This document shows, in pieces, positions 50,466 through 57,304 of a stretch of DNA of 64,000 nucleotides; positions within the stretch are counted from its first letter, which is position 1, and each line of letters starts with the position of its first letter. The translations under genes were made by a program, and so were the position numbers. This DNA comes from a phage: sequence record PX421306.1; one strand, written 5' to 3'. Under the pieces are notes generated by a model, which did no database searches, was not told the origin of the DNA, and worked only from the letters and a program-made list of their open reading frames with translations.

Positions 50466-51635
50466 TTAAAAATATTTTTTAAAACTCATCATAACTTTAT
50501 CATCAACATCATTATCAATCTGTGCAACAAGGTAAGATGACAGTTCTACTTCTTGTGGCGCTGATTGAACATTATCAGAATTAAGATATTCACGAATCCA
50601 AGGATACGGATGTTTAACCGGAGCATCAGTAATTGGGCATGGAAGACCGCACTGTTTCATACGAGATACAGTTAAGTAATCAATAAAGCTCCACATGCTA
50701 TTTGTATTTAATCCAGGAACATCGCCATCTTTAAATAAATGAACTGCCCAGTCTTTTTCTTGACGGTTAACTTCCATGAAAATATCAACTGCTTCTTGTT
50801 CACACTCTTGGGCGATTTTAACCCATTCATCACCATCAGTGCCAAGCTGAAGTTGACGAATAATATATTGGGTGCCTTTAAGGTGTAGCTGTTCATCACG
50901 AGCAATGAACTTCATAATCTTGGCATTACCTTCCATGATTTCCATGTTTTTGTGGAAGTTAAATGTACACGCGAAAGATACGTAAAAACGAATAGCTTCC
51001 AGAGCGTTGATTACATGAAGGCAAAGATAAAGAGATTTCATTAATGCTCGTTTAGTACATTCAACAACTTTGCCTAACTCTTCTTTACGAAATCCTTCTG
51101 ATAAAATTCCTTCATAATCTTCAACCGCATTCTGATATTCACGAGTCTTAACTAGAACGTCATCATAATAACGACCAATAGATTCAGCACGTTTCATGAT
51201 AGCTTTATCTAATACAATCTCATCAAATACCTTTGACGGATCAGTATAAAGATTTCGCATAATATGAGTATATGAACGGCTGTGAATAGTTTCACTAAAA
51301 GTCCATGTAGCAACCCATGTATCAAGGCTTGGGTCTGAAATTAATGACATAAGTACAGCAGACGGTGCACGACCCTGAATGCTATCTAGAAGTGATTGAT
51401 ACTTCAGGTTATTAGTAAAAATATCCTGCTGATATTGAGGAAGCTTATTAAATTGTGCAGCATCCATCATCAAGTTTACTTCTTCAGGACGCCAGAAAAA
51501 TGACAACTGCTTTTCGGTTAAATCTTCAAAAACTTTATGACGTTGAATATCATAACGCGCAATACCAAGACCTGAACCGAAGAACATAGGTTCTTTTAAA
51601 ACATCAACTGGATTTGTATTAAAAACTGTGCTCAT
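50466..51635 (-). CDS. nrdB: Ribonucleotide reductase small subunit NrdB, uninterrupted
   Basis: About 388 aa, the T4 NrdB length, in one continuous frame; ferritin-like R2 protein. Confidence 0.9.
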   Translation of the reverse strand: MSTVFNTNPVDVLKEPMFFGSGLGIARYDIQRHKVFEDLTEKQLSFFWRPEEVNLMMDAAQFNKLPQYQQDIFTNNLKYQSLLDSIQGRAPSAVLMSLISDPSLDTWVATWTFSETIHSRSYTHIMRNLYTDPSKVFDEIVLDKAIMKRAESIGRYYDDVLVKTREYQNAVEDYEGILSEGFRKEELGKVVECTKRALMKSLYLCLHVINALEAIRFYVSFACTFNFHKNMEIMEGNAKIMKFIARDEQLHLKGTQYIIRQLQLGTDGDEWVKIAQECEQEAVDIFMEVNRQEKDWAVHLFKDGDVPGLNTNSMWSFIDYLTVSRMKQCGLPCPITDAPVKHPYPWIREYLNSDNVQSAPQEVELSSYLVAQIDNDVDDKVMMSFKKYF

Positions 51636-51686
51636 AAATTTTCCGCTTAGTTAATAGATAGTGACTCGTCCGTGAGTCAAATTATA

Positions 51687-52676
51687 TCATAATTTACAGG
51701 ATGAACAATCTTCAGCTTTTGGAGTTTCTATTTCATAATCATCAGTACCAGAACCGTCGCGGGTATTATGATAATAGAAATTTTTTCCGCCAAAATACCA
51801 AAAGTACAAAAGGTCATCAATCATTACAGACATTGGAACCTTTCCTTTTGGAAAAATCTGCGGGTCATAATATGTATTCGCTGAAGCTGATTGACATACC
51901 CATTTCAGCATAATAGCTACCTGCGTAAGATAAGGTTTATTACCTTTCTTAGCCAATTTCCACGTATAATCATAGAGGTCTATGTTATGTTCAATATTGG
52001 GCACGACTTGATTAAAGGAACCCTCTTTTGACTCTTTAACAGAGACTGGTCCACGTGGAGGCTCGATACCGTTTGTACTGTTAGAAACTTGGGAAGATGA
52101 CTCACATGGCATAAGTGCTGATAATGTGCTATTACGAATGCCAAAGAGCTTAAGGTCTTCCCGCAGCGACGACCAGTCACAAACGTATTTTGGAGCTGCG
52201 ATTTGGTCAATCTTTTTATTGTACCAGTCGATAGGTAATTCGCCTCGAGACCAACGAGTGTCTGAATAATATTCGCAAGGTCCTTTTTCTTTGGCGAGCT
52301 TAATGGATGCTTTAATGAGTCCATACTGTAATCTCTCAAATAGTTCATGTGTTAAATCGTTAGCATCTTCATAAGAAGCAAAGTTACTTGCCAACCAAGC
52401 TGCATAGTTAGTAACACCTACACCAAGATTTCGACGCTTTTTAGCCTTTTCTGCTTCAGGAACTGGATATCCTTGGTAATCCAAAAGATTATCAAGAGCA
52501 CGAACTTGGACTTCTGCTAATTCATTAATTTTATCTTGGTCTTGCCAATCGAAGTTATCTAACACAAATGCGCTAAGGGTACAAAGCCCCACTTCTCCCT
52601 TGTTTTCAATAACTTCTATTGTAGTATACTCATCATCTTCGTAAAATTCATCTACAAATTCATAATCAATATTCAT
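51687..52676 (-). CDS. nrdA: Ribonucleotide reductase large subunit, C-terminal fragment
   Basis: 329 aa beginning with its own ATG; contains 'GLCTLSAF' (the E. coli NrdA C462 region) and a C-terminal 'CSSC' pair. Confidence 0.85.
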   Translation of the reverse strand: MNIDYEFVDEFYEDDEYTTIEVIENKGEVGLCTLSAFVLDNFDWQDQDKINELAEVQVRALDNLLDYQGYPVPEAEKAKKRRNLGVGVTNYAAWLASNFASYEDANDLTHELFERLQYGLIKASIKLAKEKGPCEYYSDTRWSRGELPIDWYNKKIDQIAAPKYVCDWSSLREDLKLFGIRNSTLSALMPCESSSQVSNSTNGIEPPRGPVSVKESKEGSFNQVVPNIEHNIDLYDYTWKLAKKGNKPYLTQVAIMLKWVCQSASANTYYDPQIFPKGKVPMSVMIDDLLYFWYFGGKNFYYHNTRDGSGTDDYEIETPKAEDCSSCKL

Positions 52677-53511
52677 TTAATTCTTCTACCTTTTTTCTAG
52701 TAATTCCTAAAGCTTTAGATGCTCGATGTATTGATTGATATTCTATACCGTTTATTTTTACAGCAATTAAGTTATGGGGTTTTAATCCCTTTGGATGAGG
52801 TTTACTGACGAAAACTAAATTATCAAGCTCTGAAATCTTATCCAATTTCTTACACTTAAATCCTTTGTGATGCGCCCGTTTACCTTTACAAACGGCTGAC
52901 ATCGCAGATGGATTTAAATTATGCTCTTTACAAAATTCGTTAAGACCTCGATGAATTTCCTCATGACCATCTGGAAATGTAAACACCCAAGACGTTTGAA
53001 GTCGAGATTTAACTTCTGGAGACATAGGAATACCTTTGTTCCAGGCCGGTTTGCCTTTATTATTTTCAGATACAGAAATAGCCAATTTTCTTCTAAGCCA
53101 CCCATGTCGTTTATTGGTGTTCTTTCGTTCAATATTATCTTCAGAATAAACACACATCATATTAGCGGCAAATATCAATTTATGATTATCTGGATATATC
53201 TTTACTAATAATTGATGAGCTATGTAATGCTCTTCTGGTGTCAAATCTACCAGGTTTTCCTTTGTATCAGAACCACCAATACACAGAGGTATAATATGAT
53301 GTGATTCGGTATAGCAATCTAATTTTCTGTTCTTAGCTTTAGAAATAAGGTTATTGTAAATTTTAGAATAATCCATAACTTTTCCTCTTGTTATGGATTA
53401 TTTATTAACGGTCTGTGTACTTTATTTGCTTTGAATTATACCGCCAGGATTAGCTTCATAAAACTTAGCTACATCCGACTTCTTAATTTTAATTAAACGG
53501 GTTTGTTGACT
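52623..53511 (-). mobile_element. Endonuclease-containing insertion splitting nrdA (about 0.9 kb)
   Basis: Span between the last NrdA-like residues of the N fragment (NDVN) and the first NrdA-like residues of the C fragment; boundaries estimated from alignment by eye. Confidence 0.5.
52666..53376 (-). CDS. HNH-family homing endonuclease (MobE / I-HmuI-like)
   Basis: 236 aa; HNH motif 'SHHIIPLCIGGSDTKENLVDLTPEEHYIAHQ'; C-terminal HTH-like 'INGIEYQSIHRASKALGITRKKV'; own GAGG ribosome-binding site. Confidence 0.8.
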   Translation of the reverse strand: MDYSKIYNNLISKAKNRKLDCYTESHHIIPLCIGGSDTKENLVDLTPEEHYIAHQLLVKIYPDNHKLIFAANMMCVYSEDNIERKNTNKRHGWLRRKLAISVSENNKGKPAWNKGIPMSPEVKSRLQTSWVFTFPDGHEEIHRGLNEFCKEHNLNPSAMSAVCKGKRAHHKGFKCKKLDKISELDNLVFVSKPHPKGLKPHNLIAVKINGIEYQSIHRASKALGITRKKVEELNEY

Positions 53512-54855
53512 ATTCACGTCATTTGTTGGAATAGCAATTTCACAACACAAGTTACTCTGACGAATAGGTGCCTTTTCACGAATAAATGGAGTATAGTTAT
53601 TCGTATTATCAATGAACTGTACATAAATCCTTGCTGTTCCTGAGCGTTCAGTCATAAGTAATTCAAATAGTTCACGGGCTTTAATACGCTTTTTGCGAAT
53701 ATTAGGGTCTTTTTCTGCTGCTTCGTATAATTCGCGGAAACGGTCTTGGTCTTTAAAATAAGAATAATAAAGCTCGCCACCCATTTCATGCGGACTGAAT
53801 AAAGTAATGTAATCGTTCTTTCCGAATCGTTCCATCATCAAATCATTCAGCTGAACACCATAATCCATATGACGGATACGGTTTTCTTCTACACCTTTAT
53901 TATTTTTCAAAACGAGAAGATTTTCAACTTCCAAATGCCAAATAGGATAATAAGCAGTAGCAGCGCCGCCACGAATTCCGCCTTGTGAACATGATTTAAC
54001 AGCAGTCTGAAAATGTTTCCAAAAAGGAATAACGCCAGTATGACGCACTTCACCTGTGCCAATCTTAGAACCTTCAGCACGAATCATACCAACGTTAATG
54101 CCAATTCCAGCTCGTTTAGAAATATACTCAACAATTGAAGCAGAAGCCTTATTGATAGACTTCAGCGAATCACCTGCTTCAATAACAACGCATGAACTAA
54201 ACTGTCGAGTTGGAGTACGACAACCAGCCATAATAGGAGTTGGCAATGAAATCTGTCGAGTAGATACTGCTTCATAAAAACGGATAACGTGTTTTAATCT
54301 ATCAACAGGTTCATCTTGATGCAATGCCATTCCAATAGTCATAAATGCAAACTGTGGAGTTTCATAAATTTGACCAGTGGTTTTATCTTTAACTAGATAT
54401 TTTTCTTTTAATTGCATCGCCCCGGAATAAGTAAATTCCATATCCCGCTCATGCTTAATTTTTGATTCTAAAAATGTAATTTCTTCGGCAGAATATTTTG
54501 ACAACAATTCAGGGTCGTATTTACCTTCATTTACACAGTAAGAAATTTGATCAATAAATGAACGTGGTTCATACTGCCCATAAACATGCTTACGAAGAGC
54601 GAACATTAAACAGCGTGCAGCTACATATTGATAATCAGGCTCTTCAACTGAAATAGAATTCGCAGCAGCCTTAATGACAATAGTCTGAATGTCATCAGTT
54701 GTCATTCCATCACGGAGATATGATTTAATATTTTCATATAATTCATAAGGATCTACAGATGTTCCTTCAGCTGCCCAAGATAAAACTTTAATAATTTTTT
54801 GCGGGTCAAAGCTCTGAGAAACACCACTACTTTTGATAACATTAATTAATTGCAT
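53422..54855 (-). CDS. nrdA: Ribonucleotide reductase large subunit, N-terminal fragment
   Basis: 477 aa; class Ia RNR alpha through 'SNLCCEIAIPTNDVN', then 29 non-homologous residues and a stop. Confidence 0.85.
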   Translation of the reverse strand: MQLINVIKSSGVSQSFDPQKIIKVLSWAAEGTSVDPYELYENIKSYLRDGMTTDDIQTIVIKAAANSISVEEPDYQYVAARCLMFALRKHVYGQYEPRSFIDQISYCVNEGKYDPELLSKYSAEEITFLESKIKHERDMEFTYSGAMQLKEKYLVKDKTTGQIYETPQFAFMTIGMALHQDEPVDRLKHVIRFYEAVSTRQISLPTPIMAGCRTPTRQFSSCVVIEAGDSLKSINKASASIVEYISKRAGIGINVGMIRAEGSKIGTGEVRHTGVIPFWKHFQTAVKSCSQGGIRGGAATAYYPIWHLEVENLLVLKNNKGVEENRIRHMDYGVQLNDLMMERFGKNDYITLFSPHEMGGELYYSYFKDQDRFRELYEAAEKDPNIRKKRIKARELFELLMTERSGTARIYVQFIDNTNNYTPFIREKAPIRQSNLCCEIAIPTNDVNSQQTRLIKIKKSDVAKFYEANPGGIIQSK

Positions 54856-55171
54856 AAGTCCTCAACTTGAAAATCGTCTTTAAACAATCGGTTAACTATA
54901 TGAGCTATTATATCACCATGACACGGCTTTGGTTTACATGTGCATCCTAGCCTCATTCCACGTAAAGGCTCTAAATGTGCTTTAGTTATTTCTCCGGATT
55001 TAATTCGACGTATAAAATCTTTTTTGAATAATTCAATGGCAGCCTCCCGGCTGCCAGCATCTTTACCGACGTAATTTCCCAAAATGTACCACGGTGAATA
55101 TTAACATCAAAGTCGGATTTATATTTATTCACTACCCGGCATAGACGGCCCGCGTGGTAATAGTTCGTCAT
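54846..55171 (-). pseudogene. DUF4326-like small gene interrupted by a 1-nt frameshift
   Basis: Frame A (55171 down to about 55079) encodes '[20 protein letters not shown]'; frame B (55082 to 54846) encodes 'GNYVGKD...LGCTCKPKPCHGD'; frames meet at a GGG run at 55078-55080. Confidence 0.45.
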
Positions 55172-55400
55172 ATTGTTTTTCCGTTAAAACAGTAATATCA
55201 TAATAACAATCAGAAGAAGTTTTAACTGTAGAAATTTTATTATCAAAATACTCACGAGTCATTTTATGAGTATAATATTTTTTGCCATAAATGATAATAG
55301 GCTGTTCTGGCCCTGGAACTTCCAGTTCACTTGGATTAGGAAGTGTAAAAAGAACGACACCAGAAGTATCCTTAAATCGTAAAATCATATATCCTCTCAA
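55125..55400 (-). CDS. Hypothetical protein, 91 aa (nrdA.2 position)
   Basis: ORF between td and the DUF4326-like gene. Confidence 0.55.
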
Positions 55401-55411
55401 TTAAATTAAAA

Positions 55412-56271
55412 TTACACCGCCATCTTTCCTTTAATTGGCGGATGAGATACATAGTTGTTAAGAACAAAATTATGTGGCTTTGCGAATTGACTCAACCAAA
55501 ATACCTGAGATTCTGTGCCCCATTCATCAAATTCATCTGGAAATTTTAATTGTAATTCACATAAATCCATAGGTTCACGACGTAAAATTTCTTTACATTG
55601 TTCTACGTGATTCATATAGATATGAGTATTACCACCAGAAAATATCAAATCTCCTGGAATAAGATTACACATCTTAGCTACAATATGAACTAACGTAGCA
55701 TATGATGCAATATTAAATGGAAGACCGAGGAAAACATCTACCGAACGTTGATACCACTGCAAATCCAAATAGCCATTACGCACATTAAACTGATAGAACA
55801 TATGACAAGGTGGCAATGCCATCTGCTTGAGTTCTGCCGGATTCCATGCTGAAACAATTTGACGTCTATCATTTGGCAGTTTTTTAATACGATCAACAAC
55901 TTCTACAATTTGGTCTACACCGCCAAAATCACGCCACTGTTTTCCATAAATTGGACCAAGTTCACCGCTATGATATCCTAAATCTTTTGCTTGATTTTCG
56001 TAATTTTCATCCCAGACTGTTTTGCCTTGAATTAATGAATCGTGTTGAATTAATCGTAAATCATTAACATTTGTGCTTCCTGATAAAAACCAAAGGAGCT
56101 CAGCAATGCAAGCTTTCCAGGCAAGCTTCTTAGTCGTTACTGCAGGAAAACCTTTAGTTAAATCCCAGCGTAATTTAGTACCGAACAAAGCAATTGTTCC
56201 TGTGCCTGTTCGGTCATCGGTTTCATAACCGTTTTCCAGGATATCTTTAATTAAAAATTGGTATTGTTTCA

Positions 56272-56272
<1 letters not shown>
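55412..56272 (-). CDS. td: Thymidylate synthase, uninterrupted
   Basis: ATG at 56272 (MKQYQ) gives 286 aa, the T4 TS length, in one continuous frame; active-site 'PPCH'. Confidence 0.95.

Positions 56273-57304
<1,032 letters not shown>

Follow-up and report, generated by a model that had tools for sequence, protein, structure and literature searches.

A mobE-type endonuclease cassette divides nrdA of a T4-like phage into two genes whose products probably form an active reductase

The window analysed here is a 64,000-nt stretch of the T4-like phage record PX421306.1, to which all coordinates refer. In it the ribonucleotide reductase large-subunit gene, nrdA, is present as an N-terminal piece (nrdA-a) and a C-terminal piece (nrdA-b) with the gene of a free-standing endonuclease between them (Table 1), whereas T4 nrdA is one gene encoding 754 residues and T4 mobE lies between nrdA and nrdB. 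Both halves of this contrast, together with the sizes of the three reading frames and the provision of the endonuclease with its own ribosome-binding site, had been set out in the original prediction and were confirmed by the ORF listing, the sequence and the comparison with T4. The N-terminal piece, whose ATG is preceded by the Shine-Dalgarno sequence GAGGA, combines an ATP-cone and the all-alpha domain with the barrel's first half (Pfam positions 1-221 of 523). It is 99.3% identical to T4 NrdA over residues 1-449 of both proteins, its alignment to E. coli R1 covers residues 6-455, and after ...SNLCCEIAIPTNDVNS it ends in 28 unrelated residues and a stop, the 29 codons counted earlier. The barrel's second half (219-523 of the 523 Pfam positions) is on the C-terminal piece; residues 27-329 of this piece are 95.7% identical to T4 NrdA 452-754, and residues 22-323 align to E. 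coli R1 452-751. As predicted, its ATG is found inside the 3' end of the endonuclease gene, the overlap being 11 nt, and NrdA-like sequence restarts at ...GEVGLCTLSAF; the ribosome-binding site of nrdA-b is weak (AAGGT, ~13 nt upstream).

Table 1. Features of the split nrdA locus in the window
Feature	Coordinates	Strand	Evidence
nrdA-a, N-terminal piece of NrdA, 477 aa	53422..54855	-	ORF listing, Pfam, alignments to T4 and E. coli
Basic C-terminal tail of nrdA-a, QQTRLIKIKKSDVAKFYEANPGGIIQSK, 28 aa, pI 10.0	53425..53508	-	Homology to Aeh1 tail
RNA hairpin with a perfect 13-bp stem	53367..53402	-	Predicted fold
mobE-type free-standing HNH homing endonuclease, 236 aa	52666..53376	-	Pfam, PHROG, MobE alignments
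nrdA-b, C-terminal piece of NrdA, 329 aa	51687..52676	-	ORF listing, Pfam, alignments to T4 and E. coli
Acidic N-terminal tail of nrdA-b, MNIDYEFVDEFYEDDEYTTIE, 21 codons	52614..52676	-	Homology to Aeh1 tail
nrdA-like stretch within the cassette, VIENKGEVGLCTLSA	52569..52613	-	Comparison with intact relative and E. coli R1
nrdB, small-subunit partner, uninterrupted 389-aa ORF directly downstream	50466..51635	-	ORF listing

The alignments of the two pieces to T4 and E. coli NrdA fix the break in the loop between the strands that bear the equivalents of E. coli C439 and C462. Because of these alignments C222 and C437 can be assigned to the N-terminal piece, where C222, N435, C437 and E439 are the equivalents of C225, N437, C439 and E441, while nrdA-b carries C32 (equivalent to C462), the Y730/Y731 equivalents and the C-terminal CSSC (CxxC). 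The catalytic set of a class Ia reductase (Cys225/Asn437/Cys439/Glu441/Cys462, Tyr730/731 and the C-terminal Cys pair) is complete but divided over two polypeptides, and the proposal that the active-site cysteines are on different chains holds. Between nrdA-b and nrdB there is a 51-nt spacer that contains no gene and has a terminator-like hairpin at 51662-51679; the ORF listing of the window shows neither mobE nor an intron between these genes or inside nrdB.

Judged by its HNH motif and C-terminal NUMOD-type module, the middle ORF is an HNH homing endonuclease (Mob/I-HmuI-like). The Pfam HNH model (PF01844) scored 18.2 bits, below its cut-off of 21.4, the I-HmuI NUMOD-like model PF22083 matched above its cut-off (E = 1.7e-9), and PHROG 655, 'homing endonuclease', gave E = 7e-59. 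In protein comparisons the ORF matched MobE of T4 and of Aeh1, and I-HmuI was also matched (structure 1u3e, E = 0.004). The ribosome-binding site of the gene, AAGAGGA, stands 6 bases 5' of the ATG and falls in the loop of a predicted hairpin whose 3' arm includes the endonuclease AUG (MFE -13.8 kcal/mol, z = -4.0; none of 200 shuffled sequences folded as well). This hairpin is identical in all seven carriers examined and, being invariant, displays no covariation. Its 5' arm is overlapped by a late-promoter-like sequence, AATAAATA (53399-53406), which matches at 7 of 8 positions; this was all that was found near the endonuclease gene, the canonical T4 late promoter TATAAATA being absent there, and a late-expression model is therefore weak. 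With I-TevI and Aeh1 mobE as precedents, the predicted hairpin may repress translation of the endonuclease on early and middle transcripts.

The cassette as a whole measures ~0.94 kb (roughly 52569-53508, minus strand) and sits in place of ~20-47 nt of nrdA. It consists, in order, of the codons of the basic tail with their stop, a 45-nt spacer, the endonuclease gene, the acidic tail and a recoded nrdA loop, and both of its junctions are codon-precise, with the reading frames kept. The basic tail constitutes the 5' end, homology to intact nrdA stopping at 53508. Against the tail of Aeh1 NrdA-a only 1 of 5000 shuffles scored as well as this sequence, and for the acidic tail against that of Aeh1 NrdA-b none of 5000 did; the acidic tail together with the next eight residues (29 aa) has a pI of 4.05. 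At the 3' edge, VIENKGEVGLCTLSA stands in for the host codons PDAEIGLCTLSA but uses different codons. It aligns to E. coli R1 452-466 and differs from the intact relative at 9 of 27 nt, every difference from GLC onward being synonymous. In filled and empty alleles alike, the 45 nt immediately 3' of the insertion site show an excess of synonymous differences. A protein search with the first 88 residues of the C-terminal piece returned a single 73-aa fragment.

On sequence comparison this is the same type of mobile cassette as the nrdA-a/mobE/nrdA-b 'genes-in-pieces' of phage Aeh1, whose split class Ia reductase has been described by Friedrich et al. (2007, PNAS) and Crona et al. (2011, NAR; PMC3045599). 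The resemblance to Aeh1 noted in the original prediction amounts to homology, which covers the endonuclease, the two tails, the codon of insertion and the overlap of mobE with nrdA-b. In both phages the same loop of the same gene is interrupted at the same codon and nrdB follows directly downstream; the ORFs are of similar size (473/237/323 aa in Aeh1, 477/236/329 aa in the window), the endonuclease/nrdA-b overlap is 14 nt in the former and 11 nt in the latter, and over 227 aa the window endonuclease and Aeh1 MobE share 45% identity (E = 5e-57). The tails have pI values of 9.8 and 4.05 in Aeh1 compared with 10.0 and 4.05 here, and align as IKIKKSDVAKF with FKVKKSEVDKF and as YEDDEYTTIE with YEDEEYTTVE. 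A hairpin over the mobE translation start is known from Aeh1 as well (PMC2988022), although the sequences differ and the Aeh1 stem buries the Shine-Dalgarno sequence whereas the window stem buries the AUG. The backbones also differ, Aeh1 being a Cinqassovirus while the window cassette resides in Tequatrovirus/Mosigvirus coliphages, and the two cassettes, the coliphage one known here from its sequence, are 45-58% identical. Finally, among the coliphages filled alleles occur in nature alongside empty ones whose flanks are 99.8% identical, a pairing that was not at hand for Aeh1.

Other phage systems share parts of this design. T4 MobE (Wilson & Edgell 2009, PMC2790892) belongs to the same operon, and its N-terminal HNH domain is homologous to the window endonuclease (45% identity over 129 aa, E = 1e-31). 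It is, however, a 141-aa protein encoded between nrdA and nrdB that splits no gene, whereas the endonuclease of the window splits nrdA and has ~100 additional residues, a C-terminal NUMOD-like DNA-binding part in common with Aeh1 MobE. The MobA element of T4, which divides the large subunit of topoisomerase into genes 39 and 60 (bioRxiv 10.1101/2022.08.31.505936), is built alike: on either side of its HNH Mob endonuclease, out of frame, lie a C-terminal extension of the upstream piece and an N-terminal extension of the downstream one, and the host segment that was deleted is present as a recoded copy ('HomR'), for which 52569..52613 is the analogue in the window. MobA differs in its host gene, in a 50-nt translational bypass and in tails that have no sequence similarity to those of the window. 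A further type is the 'fractured' nrdA with a split intein and a free-standing endonuclease (Dassa et al. 2009, PMC2677866), exemplified by the metagenomic phage contigs L025 and L031. In these nrdA is likewise broken into two ORFs with an endonuclease gene between them, the break lying ~10 codons upstream of the window site. These contigs carry intein halves (Cys1 ... VHN, then C; Pfam Intein_splicing 7e-9 and 8e-6) that presumably trans-splice; the window tails do not.

The full-length endonuclease occurs at at least 89% identity in 35 GenBank/RefSeq records (28 distinct phages), in every case inside nrdA; the exact protein is on 40 public contigs, and the exact C-terminal piece is likewise in public databases. 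Between the window (Tequatrovirus) and Mosigvirus carriers the tails, spacer and HNH gene are 88-99% identical compared with 77% for the nrdA flanks, and dS is ~1.5-2.1 in the flanks versus 0.06-0.41 in the HNH gene. Because the cassette is so much more alike than its flanks, it moves horizontally with its tails, and the sequence comparison shows that the whole cassette, tails included, has spread between phage genera. The window flanks are 99.8-100% identical to those of the empty-site phage IME339, the empty site is found in ~150 Mosigvirus records, and the cassette occupies three nrdA backgrounds with sharp boundaries, empty alleles occurring alongside filled ones. This population pattern is consistent with homing by the endonuclease. 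A scan of IMG/VR with a MobE alignment revealed no further close copy of the cassette except Aeh1 itself. Other elements in the same nrdA region were also seen in that scan.

In all seven carriers examined the three ORFs are intact; dN/dS is 0.005-0.09 in the NrdA pieces, while the HNH gene has values of 0.03-0.26. These values point to strong purifying selection on both NrdA pieces and to purifying selection on the HNH gene as well. The low ratios may in large part date from before the insertion or stem from recombination with intact alleles.

It could be argued that the two pieces are inactive remnants and that the phage lives on host NrdAB and its own NrdDG. T4 nrdA is auxiliary, required in nrd-defective hosts alone and dispensable in nrd+ ones (table in PMC5931544), so that under laboratory conditions a loss of function would be tolerated. 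The weak ribosome-binding site of the C-terminal piece points the same way, and the coliphage version is documented by sequence data only. It should be emphasized, however, that the pieces are full length and free of stops and frameshifts in seven of seven carriers whose backbones are 23% apart, that every catalytic residue is retained, that nrdB downstream is intact, and that the tails are conserved at the protein level with those of Aeh1, where they are required for activity (PMC3045599). In view of this, and of the low dN/dS of the NrdA pieces, we regard decay as unlikely. That the whole arrangement reflects chimeric assembly or some sequencing artefact peculiar to this genome, as the absence of the exact 477-aa N-terminal piece from a large protein collection might suggest, is exceedingly improbable, given that the same three genes with the same ORF lengths recur in 35 independently deposited phage records, that the exact endonuclease and the exact C-terminal piece are in public databases, and that codon precision and frame are preserved at the junctions.

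Removal of the interruption by splicing, through a group I intron or an intein, has precedents: group I introns are known in td, nrdB and nrdD of T4-type phages, true split inteins interrupt the same nrdA region in L025 and L031, and a degenerate intein was considered by Crona et al. (PMC3045599) as a possible source of the Aeh1 tails. A self-splicing intron, which the original prediction had named, along with an assembly chimera, as an alternative, is rejected, as an Rfam scan of 51000-55500 at E<=10 found no Intron_gpI, its two chance matches being a fungal snoRNA and a human lncRNA, and the entire interval has only 45 non-coding nt. An intein is contradicted by the two in-frame stops between the N-terminal piece and the HNH ORF, and by the different frame of the C-terminal piece. 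Moreover, the N-terminal tail begins with Q and not with Cys or Ser, and the C-extein is preceded by ...GEV, then G, without HN. In a Pfam search at E<=10 no Hint or intein signal, or indeed any other match, was obtained on the tails of the window or of Aeh1, whereas the L025 controls were positive in the same run (7e-9 and 8e-6), and hhalign gave the acidic tail a probability of 0.3% against the C-parts of split inteins. For the homologous insertion of Aeh1, both an intron and an intein are stated not to apply, and its pieces purify as separate polypeptides (PMC3045599). Splicing of either kind is thus highly improbable, and descent of the tails from an intein or a degenerate split intein is not supported by their sequences and could at most be ancient.

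We therefore favour, with considerable confidence, the view that a ~0.94-kb mobE-type cassette has split nrdA, that the separately translated halves form an active reductase and that the cassette homes. In Aeh1 the halves assemble into a fully active split enzyme for which the tails are required (PMC3045599), and by analogy an active (αa/αb)2β2 reductase is most likely formed by the NrdA pieces of the window together with NrdB. If the Aeh1 model applies (PMC3045599), each half would be translated on its own from the mRNA of the nrd operon, and the two would pair as an αa/αb heterodimer; their tails, being of opposite charge, would promote assembly of (αa/αb)2, and this complex with NrdB2 would yield a class Ia reductase that is active and draws its active site from two polypeptides. 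The population data further suggest that the endonuclease cuts empty nrdA alleles near AATGATGTGAAT..CCTGATGCYGAAATTGG, and that repair of the break would copy the cassette into the cut allele. Carriers would be immune because the insertion destroys the target site.

A more far-reaching reading, which we advance tentatively and at slightly less than even confidence, is that the cassette is still homing today, as a self-contained 'split-and-rescue' module, across Cinqassovirus, Tequatrovirus and Mosigvirus. The endonuclease, both complementing tails and the recoded copy of the target loop would then move together as one unit, and the 45-nt stretch 3' of the insertion would record an ongoing contest between cleavage and escape of the target site. 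If true, this would settle a question that Crona et al. left open, that of the source of the tails, since these would be part of the mobile element rather than of the host gene.

The arrangement itself is already known, having been studied in Aeh1 and annotated in ~28 sequenced coliphages. Thus the novelty first attributed to the coliphage version was overrated: phage e11/2 is annotated in GenBank as 'NrdA / MobE / NrdA', the endonuclease has its own PHROG family, and insertions of this kind "in Aeh1 and several others" are noted in a preprint of 2022 (bioRxiv 10.1101/2022.08.31.505936). Whether such pieces assemble has been answered experimentally for the homologous Aeh1 system (PMC3045599). 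Annotation is affected by the split, as pipelines call two 'NrdA' genes or, in some records (HY01), none; in one comparative study, nrdA of a related phage was recorded as absent (PMC5931544). Aeh1 establishes the phenomenon: a selfish gene splits the active site of an enzyme, and tails that this gene brought put the site together again. The coliphage copies make it tractable, with filled (window) and empty (IME339-type) alleles in 99.8% identical flanks and growth on E. coli K-12; with both alleles present in T4-like phages, standard T4 genetics could therefore show how often the cassette homes, where the endonuclease cuts and whether each tail is needed.

The nrdA gene of the window is split into three consecutive open reading frames on the minus strand, the middle of which encodes an HNH endonuclease, as the original prediction held and as the ORF list, sequence and Pfam matches agree. 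Barrel positions 1-221 of 523 fall on the N-piece (nrdA-a), together with the ATP-cone and the RNR all-alpha domain, and positions 219-523 on the C-piece (nrdA-b); the middle ORF matches HNH and an I-HmuI NUMOD-like domain. Residues 1-449 of the N-piece share 99.3% identity with T4 NrdA 1-449, and C-piece residues 27-329 share 95.7% with T4 NrdA 452-754; in T4, as the original prediction stated, nrdA is one 754-aa gene with mobE between it and nrdB. With E. coli R1 structures as reference, the N-piece corresponds to residues 6-455 and C-piece residues 22-323 to 452-751, which places the break in the loop between the N437/C439/E441 strand and the C462 strand, and thus between the active-site cysteines as claimed. 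The N-piece carries C222 and C437 (equivalent to C225 and C439), and the C-piece carries C32 (equivalent to C462), the YY radical-transfer pair and the C-terminal CSSC. The 29 extra N-piece codons comprise 28 residues and a stop, and the C-piece ATG does lie within the endonuclease 3' end, with an 11-nt overlap. An intact nrdB is directly downstream.

Features of the split nrdA region
Feature	Coordinates	Strand	Length	Basis
NrdA N-piece	54855..53422	minus	477 aa	ORF list + raw sequence
HNH endonuclease	53376..52666	minus	236 aa	ORF list + raw sequence
NrdA C-piece	52676..51687	minus	329 aa	ORF list + raw sequence
Hairpin over endonuclease start (predicted)	53367-53402
Variable stretch 3' of insertion site	52545-52589		45 nt
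Terminator-like hairpin	51662-51679
nrdB	50466-51635	minus	389 aa
nrdA.1	54846-55171	minus
td	55412-56284	minus	about 286-290 aa

The nrdB and td ORFs run without interruption, so the window lacks the introns that T4 has in nrdB (with I-TevIII) and td (with I-TevI). The 51-nt nrdA-nrdB spacer lacks mobE and includes a terminator-like hairpin. Relative to T4, nrdA.1 is frameshifted (T4 NrdA.1 residues 1-31 and 30-108 match different frames, in 61-aa and 78-aa ORFs); either the gene is a genuine pseudogene or the sequence contains an error.

The limits of the insert were defined against the Tequatrovirus IME339, whose intact 755-aa nrdA displays 99.8% (N core) and 99-100% (C core) identity to the window flanks. 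Homology ends at 53508 and restarts at 52583, 20 nt being replaced by 924 nt. In the next ~27 nt (codons EVGLCTLSA) nine positions differ, all synonymous from GLC onward, and the end of the C-piece "tail", VIENKGEV, aligns with E. coli V452-I459. Thus the ~0.94-kb cassette, comprising a basic N-piece tail, spacer, endonuclease and acidic C-piece tail, also brings a recoded version of the nrdA loop, a feature similar to the "HomR" described for the MobA element of the topoisomerase gene in T4 (bioRxiv 10.1101/2022.08.31.505936). The sequence AATGATGTGAAT..CCTGATGCYGAAATTGG, which spans the insertion point in the empty sites of T4 and IME339, both Tequatrovirus, and of the Mosigvirus JS09, is likely the endonuclease target, and is destroyed by the insertion in carriers. 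Directly 3' of the insertion site, the variable stretch (nrdA-b codons GLCTLSAFVLDNFDW) shows an excess of synonymous differences, with 67-79% identity between carriers that are 96-98% identical elsewhere; the empty-site phages T4 and IME339 differ here at eight synonymous positions. This excess may stem from co-conversion tracts that end at different points, or from target sites changing so as to evade the endonuclease.

The resemblance to the split nrdA of Aeromonas phage Aeh1 noted in the original prediction extends beyond a look-alike to the same cassette, as indicated by the endonuclease, the insertion codon and the homology and charge of the tails. Aeh1 MobE is the nearest endonuclease outside the coliphage group (45% identity over 227 aa, E = 5e-57), the insertion falls at the same codon, and the Aeh1 ORFs are of 473 aa (nrdA-a), 237 aa (mobE) and 323 aa (nrdA-b), with mobE and nrdA-b overlapping by 14 nt. 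The N-piece tails align (QQTRLIKIKKSDVAKF with KEKMLFKVKKSEVDKF) with a score reached by 1 of 5000 shuffles, and the C-piece tails (IDYEFVDEFYEDDEYTTIE with IEHERIYEVYEDEEYTTVE) with a score that none of 5000 reached. Computed tail pI values are 10.0 and 4.05 in the window and 9.8 and 4.05 in Aeh1, for which 10.4 and 3.8 have been published (PMC3045599).

It could be argued that the interval is a group I intron, an intein or an assembly chimera, the first and last of which the original prediction had itself named as contrary to its reading. An intron is rejected since a search of 51000-55500 against Rfam (E<=10) returned only two chance matches, and only 45 nt of the whole interval are non-coding. 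With respect to an intein, the N-piece and endonuclease share a frame with two stop codons between them, the C-piece is in another frame, and the window tails gave no Hint/intein signal, while split-intein halves of metagenomic nrdA genes, included as positive controls in the same run, scored 7e-9 and 8e-6; comparing the acidic tail by profile with the C-parts of split inteins likewise yielded nothing. An artefact of one genome is excluded by 35 phage records (28 distinct phages after removal of RefSeq/GenBank duplicates) with the same arrangement and identical ORF lengths, all with a full-length endonuclease of at least 89% identity within nrdA. An exact copy of the window endonuclease occurs on 40 public contigs, and phage FL33 has the exact C-piece. 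The original prediction is borne out in all its statements, and its interpretation of nrdA as split by an endonuclease gene is correct; the feature is real but not novel.

Compared with the Mosigvirus carriers PTE-Eco05, ZQ3 and AV111, the window is about 76-84% identical at the nucleotide level in the nrdA flanks (77% over the N core), in contrast to 98.8% in the N-piece tail, 98-100% in the spacer, 88-99% in the endonuclease and 95-99% in the C-piece tail; dS is 1.5-2.1 for the flanks and 0.06-0.41 for the endonuclease. To judge by these comparisons the cassette moves as a mobile unit that includes its tails. Two endonuclease alleles, ~12% apart, each occur in both Tequatrovirus and Mosigvirus. 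The site is empty in ~150 Mosigvirus records against five carrier phages, and carriers make up ~33 of ~500 close Tequatrovirus-type matches. The window itself has IME339-type flanks around a cassette of the type in coliphage e11/2 (98-99% identity), and virtually none of the flank is co-converted. The codon that immediately precedes the cassette on its 5' side reads AGC (Ser) in the Mosigvirus carriers and in Tequatrovirus but GGG (Gly) in JS09, indicating that a few flanking nucleotides moved with the cassette.

The endonuclease start lies within a perfect 13-bp hairpin (predicted -13.8 kcal/mol, z = -4.0) that does not vary even between carriers with endonuclease genes 12% apart. In Aeh1 a hairpin over the ribosome-binding site limits mobE translation (PMC2988022); the Aeh1 hairpin, covering that site, differs from that of the window. 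Overlapping the 5' arm of the hairpin is AATAAATA, which matches the T4 late promoter at 7 of 8 positions. No exact TATAAATA was found near the endonuclease gene, making late-only endonuclease expression a weak idea.

The Aeh1 insertion is neither intron nor intein, and its holoenzyme, (αa/αb)2β2, has normal specific activity; the tails are not needed for αa/αb pairing but are essential for heterodimer dimerisation and activity (Crona et al., PMC3045599). Because the cassettes are homologous, the window pieces would be expected to assemble with NrdB into a similarly active, tail-dependent (αa/αb)2β2 enzyme. Such an Aeh1-like mode of action is indirectly supported by the intact nrdB, by the three ORFs being intact in seven of seven carriers examined, by low dN/dS (0.005-0.09 for the NrdA pieces, 0.03-0.26 for the endonuclease) and by the catalytic residues, which alignment to E. 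coli R1 shows to be kept across the two pieces. At a guess, RLIKIKK (basic tail) and YTTIEVIE (acidic tail), both alternating in pattern, could lie side by side and extend the broken hairpin by two strands.

Other interruptions of nrdA occur in metagenomic phage contigs. In L030:1-3900 (IMG/VR contig 3300042400_000402) a different endonuclease (235 aa, GIY-YIG-like in appearance) interrupts the gene after ...LPTVPLKSLDDEG, within the loop that is also split in the window, and the tails are unrelated to those of the window. The 40-aa tail of the upstream piece lacks Cys1 and matches intein splicing weakly, below threshold (E = 0.018), and a second break further upstream has an intein-like start, CVTPETWV. 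L025:28-3269 and L031:17-3457 (also L033, L034, L035, L037 and L038) contain split-intein 'fractured' nrdA genes, in which the N-part ends ...SNLC|CVTGDTRV... and the C-part reads M...ILVHN|CEI.... Here nrdA is interrupted some 10 codons upstream of the site used by mobE, the N-part is followed by a free-standing endonuclease (HNH, 311 aa, in L025; GIY-YIG, 234 aa, in L031), and a T4-style mobE gene also lies between nrdA and nrdB.

The mobE-split kind of nrdA has been known since 2007, and the coliphage form is also already known. GenBank annotates coliphage members (e11/2, for example, as NrdA / MobE / NrdA), and PHROGs v4 phrog_3987 (467 positions) has a match to the N-piece that extends to residue 464, far inside the tail. 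Our literature search found no paper analysing the coliphage cassette itself, and the evidence for horizontal spread of the cassette with its tails is a small addition, new in detail only. The split also causes annotation loss: the HY01 record (KF925357) annotates the endonuclease and neither nrdA piece, and UFV13, for which nrdA is listed among T4 genes 'not predicted' (PMC5931544), is a candidate case only. The main value of the window cassette is as a tractable E. coli-phage counterpart of the Aeh1 system.
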